Below, in pieces: positions 17,336-36,176 of a DNA stretch of 64,000 nucleotides (the stretch's first letter is position 1; every line of letters begins with the position of its first letter). Below the pieces are notes generated by a model. It did not search any database. It worked only from the letters and a program-made list of their open reading frames with translations, and had not been told where the DNA came from. This DNA comes from a bacterium. Its GTDB lineage: Bacteria; UBA8248. Made by a program: the position numbers and the translations under genes. The DNA lies in NCBI GenBank assembly GCA_963692865.2, contig OY843592.1, forward strand, positions 2,112,001 to 2,176,000, read 5' to 3'.

Positions 17336-18181
17336 TTGTCGTTGAGTGACTCGCAATTAGAGGCCGTCTGTCATTTGTTGAGTGATGGTTCACCGGGTGT
17401 GACGACGGCATTGGACCGCCAGGTTTCCGGATTCTCGACCGACGAGCAGCTAAGACTTCTGGACATGATGAAGAAACGTGTGGCGAATAATGAGGTGGTA
17501 TTGCCGTCATCGCTGCTGGAATTCCATTACAATCAAATCGAAATCGCTTTTTCGGACTGGTCTCTTTCCCCGGTAGAAGATGCGGACCTGGAAGATGCGT
17601 GTTTCTTGTTGGCGTCCTTCGGCCATCCGCTCGAAGACATGGAGATGAAAAAAAACGAACTGCTGGGCATGGAAAATGATTTGCGTGACCGTTTGGAGGG
17701 CTTGAGCCAGGCTGATGCCATGGTCGATGAAGTCGTGGAATACCTGCACGGAGAGCTTCGCTTCGATGGCGCTCGCAATAATTACTATGATGCGCAGAAC
17801 AGCTTTATGAATCGTGTGCTGGAACGCAGGCGGGGCATTCCCATATCGCTTTCCGCTTTGTATTTGATTCTTGGCGAACGACTGGACCTTCCCTTTCACG
17901 GAGTCGGGATGCCGGGCCACTTTATCGTCAAATACCAGGGTGATGAGAAACCCATTTTTTTGGACCCTTTCGAGAGGGGAAAACGCCTGAGCGTGGGGGA
18001 TTGTGCGGCGATTGTGCGTGGGCTCGGGTATCATTTCGACATGCGGTTTTTACAGGAAACCCCTCCTCGCCGCATCGTGGAGAGAATGATCAATAATCTG
18101 CTTGGGATTTATAAGCGTGATGGGGAAGATGAAAAGGTAACCTGCCTGCTTCGGTGTCGGGAACTGGCGCAGCGGGTGTAA
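17336..18181 (+). CDS. SirB1/transglutaminase-like domain protein
   Basis: NYYDAQNSFMNRVLERRRGIPISL, GVGMPGHF, DPF, RMINNL. Confidence 0.88.
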   Translation: MSLSDSQLEAVCHLLSDGSPGVTTALDRQVSGFSTDEQLRLLDMMKKRVANNEVVLPSSLLEFHYNQIEIAFSDWSLSPVEDADLEDACFLLASFGHPLEDMEMKKNELLGMENDLRDRLEGLSQADAMVDEVVEYLHGELRFDGARNNYYDAQNSFMNRVLERRRGIPISLSALYLILGERLDLPFHGVGMPGHFIVKYQGDEKPIFLDPFERGKRLSVGDCAAIVRGLGYHFDMRFLQETPPRRIVERMINNLLGIYKRDGEDEKVTCLLRCRELAQRV

Positions 18182-18205
18182 AGACTACCAAAGAGGAAAA
18201 AGCGC

Positions 18206-18670
18206 ATGGAATACTTCGAACTGGCCGAAAATCTCGTGTTCGGCAGACAACCGGGCCGCAAGGATATGGAGGCTTTGGCGGACAAGGGGATAAGAACCCT
18301 GGTGAATGTTCGTATGGCTGATGAAGAAGAGCCGGAATTGCCGCCCGATGCAGAGAGAGAAGCGGCGTATGAGTTGGGTATGAACTTCGTGCATATTCCC
18401 GTGAACGCTGCCTCTATGAACGATGCATTGTCGCGAGAAATTCATGAAGCGCTACGTGAGGCCAGGAAAGACGGCCCGGTGTACGTTCACTGAAAAGGCT
18501 TGGGGCGAGCCGGGATTTGCTCGCTGATTCATCTGGCCGAAGAAGAAGACCTGAACGGAGACGAAGTGCTGCAAAAAGCGCGCGACGTCGATTTCGATTG
18601 GGAGACTTCCTCTATTGCGGGGTATTTCGAAGATTTCGCGAACAACAGAAAGAAAACCGGCGCATCATAG
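18206..18670 (+). CDS. DUF442/Blh-like sulfurtransferase-phosphatase fold selenoprotein (H-U-K-G-L-G-R)
   Basis: Track ORF (QP..., GIRTLVNVRMADEE, LGMNFVHIPV) ends at GPVYVH-TGA(18491-18493). The frame continues KGLGRAGICSLIHLAEEE...KARDVDFDW... to TAG 18668-18670. The TGA replaces the catalytic Cys of HCxxxxR. Confidence 0.85.
18505..18524 (+). promoter_or_regulatory. Putative bacterial SECIS hairpin
   Basis: GCGAGC-CGGGATTT-GCTCGC starting 11 nt after the UGA. Confidence 0.65.
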
Positions 18671-18682
18671 ACGGGCGCCGCA

Positions 18683-18731
18683 GCCACAAAAAAAAAGAGG
18701 GGAGTCGTTCGCTCCCCTCTTTTTTTGTGGC
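18683..18731. terminator. Bidirectional intrinsic terminator
   Basis: GCCAC-A(n)-GAGGGGAG...CTCCCCTC-T(n)-GTGGC inverted repeat between two convergent genes. Confidence 0.85.
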
Positions 18732-18737
18732 CAACCT

Positions 18738-20429
18738 CTATTCGTCCGTCACGCATCCCTCAGAAGCCGAAGATACGCATTTGGCGTATTTATAGAGCGT
18801 GCCTTTCGTAAATTTCAGCGGGGGCGCGCTCCAGTTCAAACGCCGCCGCTCAATCTCCTCTTCTGGCACCTTGAGTTCCATGACGCGTTGTTGGGCGTCG
18901 ATCAGAACGGAGTCGCCGTCCTCGACGAGCGCGAGGAGCCCGCCGCTTTGGGCTTCGGGCGTGACGTGCCCGACGACGAAACCGTGCGTGCCGCCCGAGA
19001 ACCTCCCGTCCGTGATGAGGGCGAGGTCGTCCCCGAGGCCGGCCCCCATGATGGCGGACGTGACCGTGAGCATTTCCCGCATGCCCGGGCCGCCCCTGGG
19101 GCCTTCAAACCGGATGATGACGACGTCTCCCTTTTGAACCCTGTTTTCCTCCAACCCTTTGAGGGCGTCTTCCTCGGAATCGAAACAGCGCGCAGGACCC
19201 TCGAAACGCTCCCCTTCTTTTCCCGTGATCTTGGCGACAGCGCCCTCGCTCGCAAGGTTCCCGTAGAGAATCTGGAGGTGTCCCGTCTTCTTGATGGGAG
19301 AGGAAAGCGGCACGATGACTTTCTGGCCGGCGTGAAGGTCTGGCAAGGCCTCGATGTTCTCGCCGAGCGTCTTGCCCGTGACGGTAAGACAATCGCCATG
19401 GAGCAGGCCTTCTTTTAAGAGAAGTTTCTGAACGGCTGGAACGCCGCCCACGTCGTGTAAGTCTTCCATGACGAATTTCCCGCTGGGCTTCAAATCCGCA
19501 ACGTAGGGCGTTCTATCGCTGATTTCCTGAAAGTCGCCAATCGTGAGCTCCACCCCGACCGCCTTGGCGATGGCGATGTAGTGCAGAACAGCGTTCGTCG
19601 AGCCGCCGAGCGCCATGATGATCGTAATGGCGTTCTCAAACGCTTCTCTCGTCATGATGTCGCTGGGCTTGATGTCGTTTTCGAGCAGGTGATAAACGGC
19701 TTTCCCCACGTCGAGACACTCGTTTTTCTTGTCCTCGCTCATAGCGGGATTCGATGAACTGTATGGCAGGCTCATGCCCAGCGTCTCGATGGATGAGGAC
19801 ATCGTGTTCGCCGTATACATGCCCCCGCAAGCGCCGCCGCTCGGGCAGGCGTGCCGGATGACCGACTGAAAGCGTTCCTCGTCGATTTTTTCGGAAAAAT
19901 ACTCTCCATAGGCCTGGAAGGCGGAAACCACGTCCAGCTTCTCTCCATTGAGAAACCCCGGGCTGATGGTGCCGCCATAGACCATGAGGCTGGGCCGGTT
20001 GAGCCGCGCCATGGCGATGATGGATCCGGGCATGTTCTTGTCGCATCCGGGGAGTGTGACCAGGGCGTCATACCACTGCGCGCCGACGACGGTCTCGATT
20101 GAATCGGCGATGAGGTCTCGAGATTGCAAAGAGTATTTCATGCCCTCCGTGCCCATGGAGATGCCGTCACTCACGCCGATGGTGTTGAAAATGAGGCCGA
20201 CCATTTTCTTTTCGGCGTTCACGCTTTGCTTGATGTATTCGGCGAGCCGGTTGAGGTGGAAATTGCAGGAATTCCCCTCCCACCACATGCTGGCAATGCC
20301 GACCTGGGGGTTTTTCATATCGATTTCATCCAGACCCGCGCCGTAGAGCATGGCCTGTGAGGCGGCCTGTGAGGGCGGCTGGGTGATGCGCCGGCTGAAT
20401 CGGTTGAGTGCCGTTTTCTGCTCCGTCAT
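18738..20429 (-). CDS. ilvD: Dihydroxy-acid dehydratase
   Basis: [52 protein letters not shown]. Confidence 0.97.
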
Positions 20430-22776: not shown

Positions 22777-22938
22777 GCTTGGTTTGGATTTTTGATCTTC
22801 AAGGTCCTGGATGATAGAGTCCACGGCGAATCCTGAAAATATCAACGGATGCTCATCGACCGGGGATTCAACTGACGCCTGACGATATCCTTCCAGGATA
22901 TTATTTGCGCCTTGGTTATGAAAAATGGAGGAGTTCTT

Positions 22939-23874
22939 GTGGCCACGCATGAACTGGATACCACCGTCGATACCTGCCATTGGGGCTATTATGACTCTGA
23001 TCTCACTCCCGTCATGACGATTGCTTCCGGCGATACGCTCGTCGTGAAGACCGAATCCGGACGCAAGGATTTTCTGAAAATACATCCCGAAAGAATCTCG
23101 GATAATCTAAGGCGAATCCTGGAGACGATGGAGCAGGGTCCCGGGGCGCACATCATGACGGGTCCGGTGGCAATCGAAGGCGCCGAACCCGGCGATGTGC
23201 TGGAGATCAAGATTCGGGAAATCAGGCCCCGCTATGACTGGGGCTACAACGGCTTCAGACCCTTGGTGGGCGGCCTGCCGGAGGATTTCCCTTATATGAG
23301 AGTGGTGATTGTCGAGGTGGACGAGGAGAGCGGAACCGGGGACTGGGGCGCAGGAGTCAAGGTGCCGCTCGGGCCATTTTTCGGAAACTTCGGGGTAGCG
23401 CCCGCTCCGGCGCTCGGGCGCGTCGCGTCGTCTCCTCCGGGAGAGTGGGGAGGAAACACGGATTGCAAGGAATTCACGGCCGGCGCGACCATCTACCTGC
23501 CGGTTTTCAACGAGGGCGCCTTGTTCTCCGTCGGCGACGGGCATGGTTGCCAGGGAGATGGGGAGGCGAACATCAACGGAATCGAGATGGGCCTCATCGG
23601 CGCTTTCGAGATGAACGTCCGCAAGGACATGAGCATCAAGACCCCGCGCGCGGAAACGGAATCCCACTACATTTTGATGGGTTTTGATCCGATTCTCGAC
23701 AACGCGGCCAAAATGGCGCTGCGCGAGACGATACAGTTTTTGGGTGAACTTCGGGGCATGAGCCCGGATGATGCGTACAGGTTGTGCAGCCTGGCGGTCG
23801 ATTTGCGCGTCACCCAAATCGTGAACGGCACCAAGGGCGTGCACGCCATGGTGCCCAAATCTTTGTTCGAATGA
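22939..23874 (+). CDS. Acetamidase/formamidase family protein (copy 1)
   Basis: HIMTGPVAIEGAEPGD, GGN.D, GDGHGCQGDGE, AY.LCSLAVDL. Confidence 0.92.
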   Translation: MATHELDTTVDTCHWGYYDSDLTPVMTIASGDTLVVKTESGRKDFLKIHPERISDNLRRILETMEQGPGAHIMTGPVAIEGAEPGDVLEIKIREIRPRYDWGYNGFRPLVGGLPEDFPYMRVVIVEVDEESGTGDWGAGVKVPLGPFFGNFGVAPAPALGRVASSPPGEWGGNTDCKEFTAGATIYLPVFNEGALFSVGDGHGCQGDGEANINGIEMGLIGAFEMNVRKDMSIKTPRAETESHYILMGFDPILDNAAKMALRETIQFLGELRGMSPDDAYRLCSLAVDLRVTQIVNGTKGVHAMVPKSLFE

Positions 23875-23899
23875 ATTTCATTTTTCGAAAGGGCCGACG

Positions 23900-24847
23900 T
23901 TGGCCGAACATGTGATCGCGCAAAACCCCGACAACATCCAGTGGGGTTATTATGACGCCGGGCTTTCTCCGGTTCTCACCGTGGCTTCGGGGGATGTGCT
24001 CGAAATTCACACCGAACCGGGGATACGGACCCTCGAATCTCCGATTCGGGAAAGAGCATCTGAAAGCCTGCGGGACATCGCCGAGCGTGGAAAGAGAGAC
24101 CTGGGAGGCCATATCCTCACGGGCCCCATCGCGGTGGAAGGGGCCGTCGGAGGAGACGGCCTGGAGGTGCGGTTTCTGGATGTCTGGCCGCGCTATGACT
24201 GGGGTTTTAACGTCATCCGCCCCTTGGCGGGTGGCTTGCCCGAGGATTTTCCGTATTCGAGAACGGTAATCGTGGAGATCGACAAGGAGGCGAATACCGG
24301 GGATTGGGGCGCTGGCGTGAAGGTGCCCTTGAGGCCGTATTTCGGTAATTTTGGCGTGGCTCCACCCAGTGATTTCGGCCGTGTTCCATCCACTCCGCCG
24401 GGAATCTGGGGCGGAAACATGGACAACAAGGAACTCATCGCGGGCTCTCGCGCCTATCTTCCCGTATTCCAGGATGGCGCTTTGTTCGCGATTGGGGACG
24501 GGCACGGTTGCCAGGGAGACGGGGAGAGTTGCCTCTCGGCACTGGAGTGCGGCATGTCCGCAAGGGTCGAACTCATCGTCCGCAAGGATTGGAGCTTGAA
24601 GATGCCCCGGGCAGAGACGCCCACGCACTATATCCTCATGGGCTTCGACCCGATTCTCGATAACGCGGCCAAGATGGCGCTCAGGGAAACGATAAATTTT
24701 CTCGGCGAGTTGCGAGGCATGAGCAGAGATGACGCATATACGCTGTGCAGCCTGGCGGTGGATTTGCGCATCACGCAGATTGTAAACGGAGTCAAAGGCG
24801 TTCACGCGATGCTGCCGAAGAGTATTTTTGATGAAGGAGTGTGTTGA
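23900..24847 (+). CDS. Acetamidase/formamidase family protein (copy 2)
   Basis: Same motifs as copy 1 (HILTGP, GGNMD, GDGHGCQGDGE). Confidence 0.92.
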   Translation: MAEHVIAQNPDNIQWGYYDAGLSPVLTVASGDVLEIHTEPGIRTLESPIRERASESLRDIAERGKRDLGGHILTGPIAVEGAVGGDGLEVRFLDVWPRYDWGFNVIRPLAGGLPEDFPYSRTVIVEIDKEANTGDWGAGVKVPLRPYFGNFGVAPPSDFGRVPSTPPGIWGGNMDNKELIAGSRAYLPVFQDGALFAIGDGHGCQGDGESCLSALECGMSARVELIVRKDWSLKMPRAETPTHYILMGFDPILDNAAKMALRETINFLGELRGMSRDDAYTLCSLAVDLRITQIVNGVKGVHAMLPKSIFDEGVC

Positions 24848-35516: not shown

Positions 35517-36176
35517 ATGAACCTCACCATGTGGAACTGCTACGTCTGACCCTACGCCTACAGAGCCATGGAGTGGCTCGTTCGCCTTCAGGAGAAAAGA
35601 AGCGATCTGAAAGTGGACTACAAGGCCTTCGTGCTCGAGCAGGCGAATTTCGGCCCGGCGCGCGGCGAGGACTGGAGGGCCTGGGAGGACAAGACCTTCC
35701 CGAGCCGGGATCTCCCCCCGCATCAGGCGGCCAAGTGCGCGGCTCTTCAGGGCGAGACGCAGTTCGACAAGTACCACGTGGCGCTCCACCGGGCGAGGCA
35801 CAGGGACGGCAAGGACATCACCAGCGAACTGGTCCTGCGCGATATCGCCGTGGAAGTCGGCCTCGACGTCGCCCGCTGGGAGGAGGACATGAAGAGCGGC
35901 GCCACGATTCCCCTCATCGCGCAGGAGCATGAGGACGCGGCGGAGCAGGGCGTCTTCGGCGTTCCCACGCTCGATTTCGGGGAGGGCAAGCCCGTTTTCG
36001 TGAAGCTCGAAGAGGGCGACTGGGAGAACGAGGGCGACGAGCAGGGCCTCCTGGACGCCGTGCGGGCCACATCGGCCGAGCGGCCCTGGCTGCTGGAACT
36101 CAAGACGCCCGAATCCGCCAAGCGCAGTTCCGCCTCGGCGAAAAAGTACGAGAAATACGGCGTGAAGTCGAGGTAA
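35517..36176 (+). CDS. DsbA-like thioredoxin-fold selenoprotein (WNCYV-U-PYAY)
   Basis: ATG 35517 after GGGAG gives MNLTMWNCYV-TGA(35547-35549)-PYAYRAMEWL, in frame with the track ORF (GVFGVPTL). The TGA aligns with the Cys of the family CP motif. Confidence 0.85.
35563..35579 (+). promoter_or_regulatory. Putative bacterial SECIS hairpin
   Basis: GAGCCAT-GGA-GTGGCTC starting 13 nt after the UGA. Confidence 0.65.

Follow-up and report, generated by a model that had tools for sequence, protein, structure and literature searches.

The window analysed here, a stretch of 64,000 nucleotides of bacterial DNA, carries on its forward strand, at 18206..18670, a short gene of 154 codons and a terminal TAG whose reading frame contains an in-frame TGA at 18491..18493. 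A Shine-Dalgarno-like AGAGGA, read from the sequence at 18192..18197 (+), lies 8 nt 5' of the ATG. Upstream on the same strand, a transglutaminase-like gene (17336..18181; PF13369, E 1.8e-42) with a weak match to SirB1 ends 24 nt before that ATG, and the two genes are probably co-transcribed. On the other side, ilvD (18738-20429, minus strand, assigned by its ILVD_EDD domain match) converges on the gene, and the two have in common a bidirectional intrinsic terminator at 18683..18731, an A-run/hairpin/T-run lying twelve bases 3' of the TAG. A simple terminator scan missed this element and folding revealed it: each strand folds at about -34 to -35 kcal/mol, with z near -5, and the description of it as bidirectional in an earlier, sequence-only reading of this DNA is accurate.

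Read directly from the ATG at 18206, the frame arrives at ...RKDGPVYVH immediately before the TGA. When this codon is translated as selenocysteine (Sec, U) the frame runs on as KGLGRAGICSLIHLAEEEDL (KGLGRAGICSL...) for 58 codons until the TAG at 18668-18670, and the 154-residue product has U as its residue 96. The sequence-only reading had proposed an ORF ending exactly at PVYVH-TGA, an open frame from KGLGRA over 58 codons to a TAG near the terminator, and a GCGAGC-CGGGATTT-GCTCGC hairpin starting 11 nt after the TGA. Translation bears out the first two, and the hairpin is present at 18505-18524.

The read-through product (P0001) matches PF04273 (BLH_phosphatase/DUF442) in a Pfam scan at 35.5 bits against a gathering score of 26.1, over residues 6-101, so that the match spans the TGA; the DUF442 assignment made from the letters alone is thus upheld by the family model. 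The TIGR01244 sulfur-transferase model aligns over 5-132 of its 135 positions and scores 47.6, below its cut-off of 85.85, and the Blh model NF040641 aligns through its N-domain and scores 64.4, below its cut-off of 625. On these scores P0001 is best classed as a related subfamily outside both models. The Rhodanese Pfam model gives 13.7 bits (E 0.085), below its cut-off of 22.2, and the likeness to rhodanese would accordingly be called analogous, not homologous. Classical phosphatase profiles also stay below their cut-offs (PF00782, 17.5 versus 33.5; PF00102, 13.5 versus 20.9), the DSP-PTPase families PF22785, PF22741 and PF22784 score with E-values of 1e-7 to 1e-8, and the loop, which reads U-x4-R, differs from the classical PTP/DSP signature C-x5-R.

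An AlphaFold model built from an alignment of 87 sequences is a single compact domain (pLDDT 94.4, pTM 0.89). In this model a strand at 92-95 (VYVH) leads into a loop holding residue 96, and a short P-loop, U96-K-G-L-G-R101, sits at the N-terminus of a helix, which places Sec where relatives have the nucleophilic Cys. The part of the protein encoded after the TGA supplies this P-loop together with helices 100-113, 118-127 and 138-151. The top Foldseek matches are the DUF442 structures 3gxh, 2f46 and 3gxg (E 3e-8 to 9e-8, TM-score 0.70-0.72), followed by PTPs from archaea and bacteria and dual-specificity phosphatases from eukaryotes (Tk-PTP, TpbA, DUSPs) with TM-scores of 0.65-0.77. By sequence the best true relative in the PDB is 2f46 (E 0.0028); the nominally better match 6xr1 is a designed repeat protein and was rejected.

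A HMMER scan of 1.84 billion representative proteins returned 1186 relatives at E <=1e-3 and 98 at E <=1e-10. For alignment we took the 86 single-domain relatives (~138-165 aa) among the 149 matches listed, leaving out truncated, longer and fused forms. Among these listed matches the column under U96 holds Cys in 77 of the 86 relatives, Ser in five, Gly in two, Asp in one and a gap in one. Of the 87 rows, 85 retain His95 and 82 retain Arg101. The H-C-x4-R spacing given for DUF442/Blh domains in the sequence-only reading agrees with the relatives' motif, H-C-x-x-G-x-R-[AS], and the TGA/Cys pairing that it had suggested looking for among homologues is plain in the same column. The loop glycine stands at position 100 in P0001 and at 99 in the relatives. 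The closest relative among the matches listed, P0027, is a Cys form that is 44% identical and carries the subfamily's own loop, HCKAIGRAGVCSF.

Four representatives of 94-100 residues (P0019, P0071, P0093 and P0158) stop exactly at ...VH, P0126 is another truncated representative, and the 53-residue entry P0073 corresponds to the downstream piece; the fragments ending at VH and P0073 are what a gene caller would make of Sec forms. In a word-indexed database all 25 matches found were of 84-95 residues, covering at most 62% of the query, and one of these truncated entries bears the name 'sulfur transferase domain-containing protein [Nitrospinae bacterium]'. When P0093 was compared with genome contigs it found four loci, namely three Cys forms from cyanobacteria and one degenerate copy from Chthoniobacterales; against metagenome contigs it again found four, of which two were Cys forms and two were not recognisable homologues. 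A further short representative, P0028 (94 aa), has residues 1-56 fused in frame with its C-terminal part, so that the whole active site is gone; either a deletion allele or an artefact of assembly might explain this entry.

Comparison across the phylum provides a view of how the TGA and the frame beyond it have been kept. A search allowing read-through of stops matched 25 of 41 related genomes, including all 24 other sampled genomes of the window's family. Phylum-wide, 35 of 51 genomes match, all from the window's family, in which 34 of the 41 genomes other than the window's own have a match. These searches yield 58 matches, made up of 57 full-length copies and one fragment. The catalytic codon is TGA in 57/57 full-length copies (35 genomes) and TAA or TAG in none, the residue before it is His in 56 copies and Tyr in one, and the frame continues past it in all 57, down to about 36-46% protein identity. 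All 57 copies are kin, from one family of one phylum, so that these counts overstate the number of independent observations, as does the Fisher test given below. Two outcomes that the sequence-only reading had named as fatal to its proposal, a downstream frame that is not conserved and homologues that end at this position, are both contradicted by these copies and by the Cys-containing relatives.

The copies fall into two paralogue lines, with the motif HUKG[LVM][GR]RAGICSL in the window's line and HUKATGRAGICSL in the second. The genome from which the window comes (G000) has a second-line copy at G000:C1:268585-269046, and its two paralogues are 40% identical (38/95) before the TGA and 35% (20/57) after it, which means that conservation beyond the supposed stop is about equal to that ahead of it. 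In a FastTree phylogeny of the 57 Sec forms and 45 Cys relatives, rooted at the midpoint, the Sec forms and P0027 make up a single clade (support 0.993), with P0027 placed weakly (0.567) beside the window's line. With this choice of root, the tree suggests a single Cys-to-Sec change, then duplication and perhaps one reversion. A natural control is offered by the one decayed copy, which belongs to the window's line (L086; G009:C10:131447-131719): its Sec codon reads TGG, a TAA lies within it, and both the frame and the hairpin have broken down. Only the second paralogue is intact in that genome. In one orthologue (L036, on G010:C5) a second in-frame TGA replaces the Trp codon that every other copy has in DFDW; a sequencing error, a recent nonsense mutation or some other cause may lie behind it, and the contamination estimate of its genome is 9%.

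The SECIS-like hairpin at 18504..18525 (+) is formed by a 5' arm at 18504-18510 (GGCGAGC), a loop at 18511-18518 (CGGGAUUU) and a 3' arm at 18519-18525 (GCUCGCU), that is, GCGAGC/CGGGAUUU/GCUCGC at 18505-18524 and seven pairs when the closing G.U is counted. Folded as a single sequence it does not surpass shuffled versions (z -0.06 and -0.3). By itself, therefore, it proves nothing, and its support comes from comparison with other genomes. A consensus structure from 41 sequences has seven pairs, all of which are intact in 57/57 copies, and the string GGGCG[A/G]GCCGGGAUUUGCUCGCU is nearly invariant in both paralogue lines. Across 44 well-conserved degenerate codons in the 41 sequences, synonymous variation is zero at codons 100 and 102-106, which are six of the seven hairpin codons, compared with none of the 37 others (Fisher p about 1e-6, a value overstated owing to the kinship of the sequences and to the overlap between the hairpin and the conserved P-loop peptide); outside the hairpin, codon entropy at Gly90, Val94 and Ala111 is 1.4-1.7 bits. 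The lone variable hairpin codon, Arg101 (CGA/CGG, 18 versus 23), changes an A-U to a G-U pair, the other stem change, seen once, is from G-C to G-U, and both variable positions stay paired. Double compensatory changes occur at none of the seven pairs in the 41 sequences, so that classical covariation is absent, and part of the conservation is at the protein level, since the codons of the most conserved peptide, GRAGICSL, overlap with the hairpin. The loop varies even where the amino acid changes: it reads CGGGAUUU in 46 copies, CGGGGUCU in five, CGGGGUUU in four, and CGGGAUAU and CGGGCUUU in one copy each. In the bacterial SECIS consensus the apical loop starts about 16-37 nt after the UGA, with a G near the loop start; the 8-nt loop CGGGNUNU begins with CGGG 17 nt after the UGA and fits this consensus in both respects. 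A search of Rfam gave no match to a SECIS family, either at gathering thresholds or at E up to 10.

The window's genome possesses the full machinery for selenocysteine. SelB lies at G000 C1:1271291-1273177 (391.7 bits) with SelA adjoining it (567.2 bits), and SelD is encoded on the minus strand at G000:C1:65915-66877 (334.6 bits), all three above cut-off; the SelD gene itself has an in-frame TGA and its product is, as read from the gene, a Sec-containing SelD. A tRNA-Sec with anticodon TCA is found at both G000:C1:1207504-1207596 and G000:C4:29719-29811 (76.7 bits each, likewise above cut-off), and ARAGORN also finds tRNA-SeC. The presence of these two genes on different contigs may reflect a true duplication or a redundant contig, the contamination estimate of G000 being 6.69%. 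The absence of SelB and tRNA-Sec, which the sequence-only reading had considered a further way to be wrong, is therefore not what we find. SelB scores above cut-off in 48 of the 51 genomes of the phylum, and the three genomes without a match are fragmented assemblies of 67-91% completeness. TGA is also the commonest ordinary stop in G000, where 1983 open frames reach 400 codons or more and 1062 of them end in it, from which it follows that this codon has not been reassigned.

The two paralogue lines have different surroundings. In the window's line the order is a TPP-enzyme gene (-), the SirB1-like transglutaminase-fold gene (+), the DUF442-Sec gene (+) and ilvD (-), an arrangement kept in 21/21 loci of this line (clade A) and in two loci of another genus (L040, L056). 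In G000 the second paralogue begins 22 nt after the end of an OsmC-related selenoprotein gene (G000:C1:268000-268563; L059 4416-4979), which scores 166.5 bits against a cut-off of 95 with NF041052 and has an in-frame TGA (L059 4668-4670) in the context GF-U-LLT. An OsmC-like homologue stands beside the paralogue in 17 of the 20 second-line loci fetched (16 of 19 from other genomes, and G000's own), and its product is probably a functional partner of the second paralogue; the window's own copy has no such neighbour. Second-line loci also hold a divergent methylmalonyl-CoA-epimerase-like gene and, further up, a metallo-beta-lactamase resembling the flavorubredoxin N-domain. We considered the second-line locus as a split Blh, with dioxygenase and DUF442 encoded separately, and rejected it, as this metallo-beta-lactamase resembles flavorubredoxin and not persulfide dioxygenase. 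The context of the second paralogue is more suggestive of redox or stress chemistry than of a sulfide oxidation operon of the Blh type, and the neighbours of both lines, SirB1-like in one and OsmC-like in the other, do not point to sulfur oxidation.

Elsewhere in the window, 204 candidates for TGA read-through were listed, and a Pfam scan covered the 98 on the plus strand. Among them an ORF at 35517-36173 (+), with its TGA at 35547-35549, encodes a DsbA-like thioredoxin-fold protein (PF01323, E 6.6e-18) with the motif C-Y-V-U (CxxU); it is probably another selenoprotein gene, and perhaps the 'hidden selenoprotein 1' of the sequence-only reading. In frame translations peptide-like strings, ...GPFANGPPRWRNGRFTKRPY... 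among them, recur at about 37.5-38.0, 38.5-39.0, 40.2-40.8 and 43.5-43.8 kb of the window, which points to a repeated intergenic DNA element. Two adjacent paralogous genes of the formamidase/acetamidase family (PF03069) occupy 22912-23952 and 23768-24844 (+).

The high degree of conservation around the TGA has to be weighed against the possibility that there is no selenoprotein here. The codon would then be either a true stop, in which case the gene is split, decayed to a pseudogene or the source of a fragment of 95 residues, or a site at which an ordinary amino acid is inserted. Such a reading would agree with the 84-95-residue calls in all 25 database proteins, with the separate downstream product made by a gene caller and with the unexceptional folding energy of the hairpin. 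However, a plain stop would be expected to drift among TAA, TAG and TGA, and only TGA is found in the 57 copies; the downstream frame has been kept over deep divergence; and in the AlphaFold model the fold would be cut through the P-loop, leaving both pieces without a nucleophile. A truly decayed copy, as in G009, looks quite different, and the genome has both a complete Sec machinery and TGA as its main stop codon. We therefore consider the absence of a selenoprotein very improbable. That the DUF442-Sec gene encodes a genuine selenoprotein, cut at its Sec codon by annotation pipelines, is by contrast a conclusion that we hold with high confidence on comparative grounds, and the Sec version of the DUF442 fold first suggested by the sequence-only reading draws support from the conserved frame, the Sec/Cys pairing, the Sec machinery and the PF04273 match together.

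In our model for this protein, following the standard bacterial Sec pathway, a ribosome reaching the UGA at 18491-18493 would meet SelB carrying Sec-tRNA(Sec) bound to the hairpin 11 nt downstream, insert Sec and continue translation to the UAG at 18668. The resulting selenolate would lie where helix 100-113 begins, with Arg101 and the loop amides holding it in place, and there it could accept sulfane sulfur as an Se-S intermediate and pass the sulfur on, or take part in related thiol/selenol redox chemistry. In the rhodanese/Cdc25 superfamily the shorter C-x4-R loop goes with sulfur and not with phosphate. The acceptance of sulfane sulfur is proposed by analogy, from the short C-x4-R loop and from the DUF442 domain of Xylella Blh, which takes sulfane sulfur from thiosulfate and hands it to cyanide and GSH (PMC5823870). 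For sulfur or chalcogen transfer specifically, we put the chances at about even. It is possible, although we would lean against it, that the protein is instead a thiol/selenol oxidoreductase in which oxidation turns Sec96 into a selenenic acid or selenenylsulfide that Cys105 then resolves; the protein might work with the OsmC-like selenoprotein, as its partner or by recycling it, or might act on an oxyanion as the PTP-fold arsenate reductases do, by reducing it. Most known selenoproteins are redox enzymes, the second-line gene usually adjoins an OsmC_like_Se homologue, and Cys105 is present in 57/57 Sec forms and in P0027 as opposed to 3 of the 86 relatives among the matches listed. The codon of Cys105 (TGC), however, lies within the 3' arm of the hairpin and its invariance may reflect a constraint on the RNA, which makes this conservation signal ambiguous, and the OsmC neighbour is missing from the window's own copy. 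A third function, that of a phosphatase of the PTP or dual-specificity type with Sec as nucleophile and a seleno-phosphate intermediate, would account for the resemblance of the fold to many PTPs and DSPs and for the scores of the three DSP-PTPase families. We know of no natural Sec phosphatase, the C-x4-R loop is one residue short of the phosphatase C-x5-R, and PF00782 and PF00102 score below their cut-offs. Moreover, the DUF442 domain of Blh, which has been assayed, is a sulfur transferase (PMC5823870), and phosphate hydrolysis thus seems an unlikely role. Taking the gene product and its chemistry together, we are fairly confident in describing it as a genuine DUF442 selenoprotein whose function is sulfane-sulfur transfer or related redox chemistry.

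The lists of bacterial selenoproteins that we compared contain no equivalent. PF04273, COG3453, TIGR01244 and PTP-like proteins are absent from the accessible parts of the GOS survey family list (PMC2398784), of a 2022 review of prokaryotic selenoproteins (PMC9312934) and of the description of nine new deep-Sep families (PMC12013277), in agreement, as far as this partial coverage extends, with the impression of the sequence-only reading that the fold is not among the commonly listed families. Literature searches returned no paper linking selenoproteins to DUF442 and nothing relevant for COG3453, PF04273 or TIGR01244; those for selenoproteins or selenocysteine in Nitrospin* gave BSepDB and incidental papers only, and those for SECIS with tyrosine phosphatase and bacterial selenoproteins gave nothing relevant. 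Among the models of NCBIfam release 20, one is dedicated to the neighbouring OsmC selenoprotein and none to the DUF442-Sec protein. Whether the family is truly unlisted we put at about even odds, as it may be named in published lists beyond those compared. There is, in our estimation, an equal case for and against the fuller proposal that this protein is the founder of an unlisted family and the first natural PTP-fold enzyme with a Sec P-loop nucleophile, which would have arisen once in the phylum and been duplicated, with one copy wired to an OsmC-like selenoprotein in a two-selenoprotein module for reactive sulfur or peroxide.

As regards annotation, the gene is mis-called in 25/25 public records found; these end at the TGA, and the catalytic half of the enzyme is consequently missing from the databases. 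For chemistry, the protein would extend the use of selenocysteine to a PTP-like P-loop fold, and together with the Cys form P0027, at 44% identity, it offers a natural Sec/Cys pair for probing what selenium gains in sulfur-transfer or P-loop chemistry. Related lineages have been reported to encode about 50 selenoproteins (PMC13326102), and an extra selenoenzyme that is duplicated and strictly conserved, in a phylum where SelB is nearly universal, adds to this picture of heavy selenium dependence.

Four known systems stand closest to the protein. The DUF442 N-domain of Blh from Xylella fastidiosa and Agrobacterium belongs to the same PF04273 family and has the H-[C/U]-x4-R loop position in common with P0001. 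In Blh, however, DUF442 is fused to an ETHE1-type dioxygenase, whereas P0001 stands alone at 154 aa without a dioxygenase, its loop is U-K-x-x-G-R and not C-x-x-G-x-R, Sec replaces Cys, and there is the extra Cys105. The Shewanella proteins 3gxh and 3gxg and NMA1982 of Neisseria (2f46) are stand-alone DUF442 proteins of a size like that of P0001; they differ in being Cys enzymes of 18-23% identity, for which the depositors give the function only as 'putative phosphatase'. The OsmC-related selenoprotein of NF041052 is a known selenoprotein with an unrelated fold, and is a neighbour of the second paralogue rather than a relative. A further parallel is offered by the Sec rhodanese-type sulfurtransferases (COG0607, COG2897, pfam00581), which published lists already count among selenoproteins (PMC2398784; PMC9312934). 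As in the DUF442-Sec protein, Sec stands there at the catalytic Cys position of a short, C-x4-R-type sulfur-transfer loop, although the two belong to different folds and different families.
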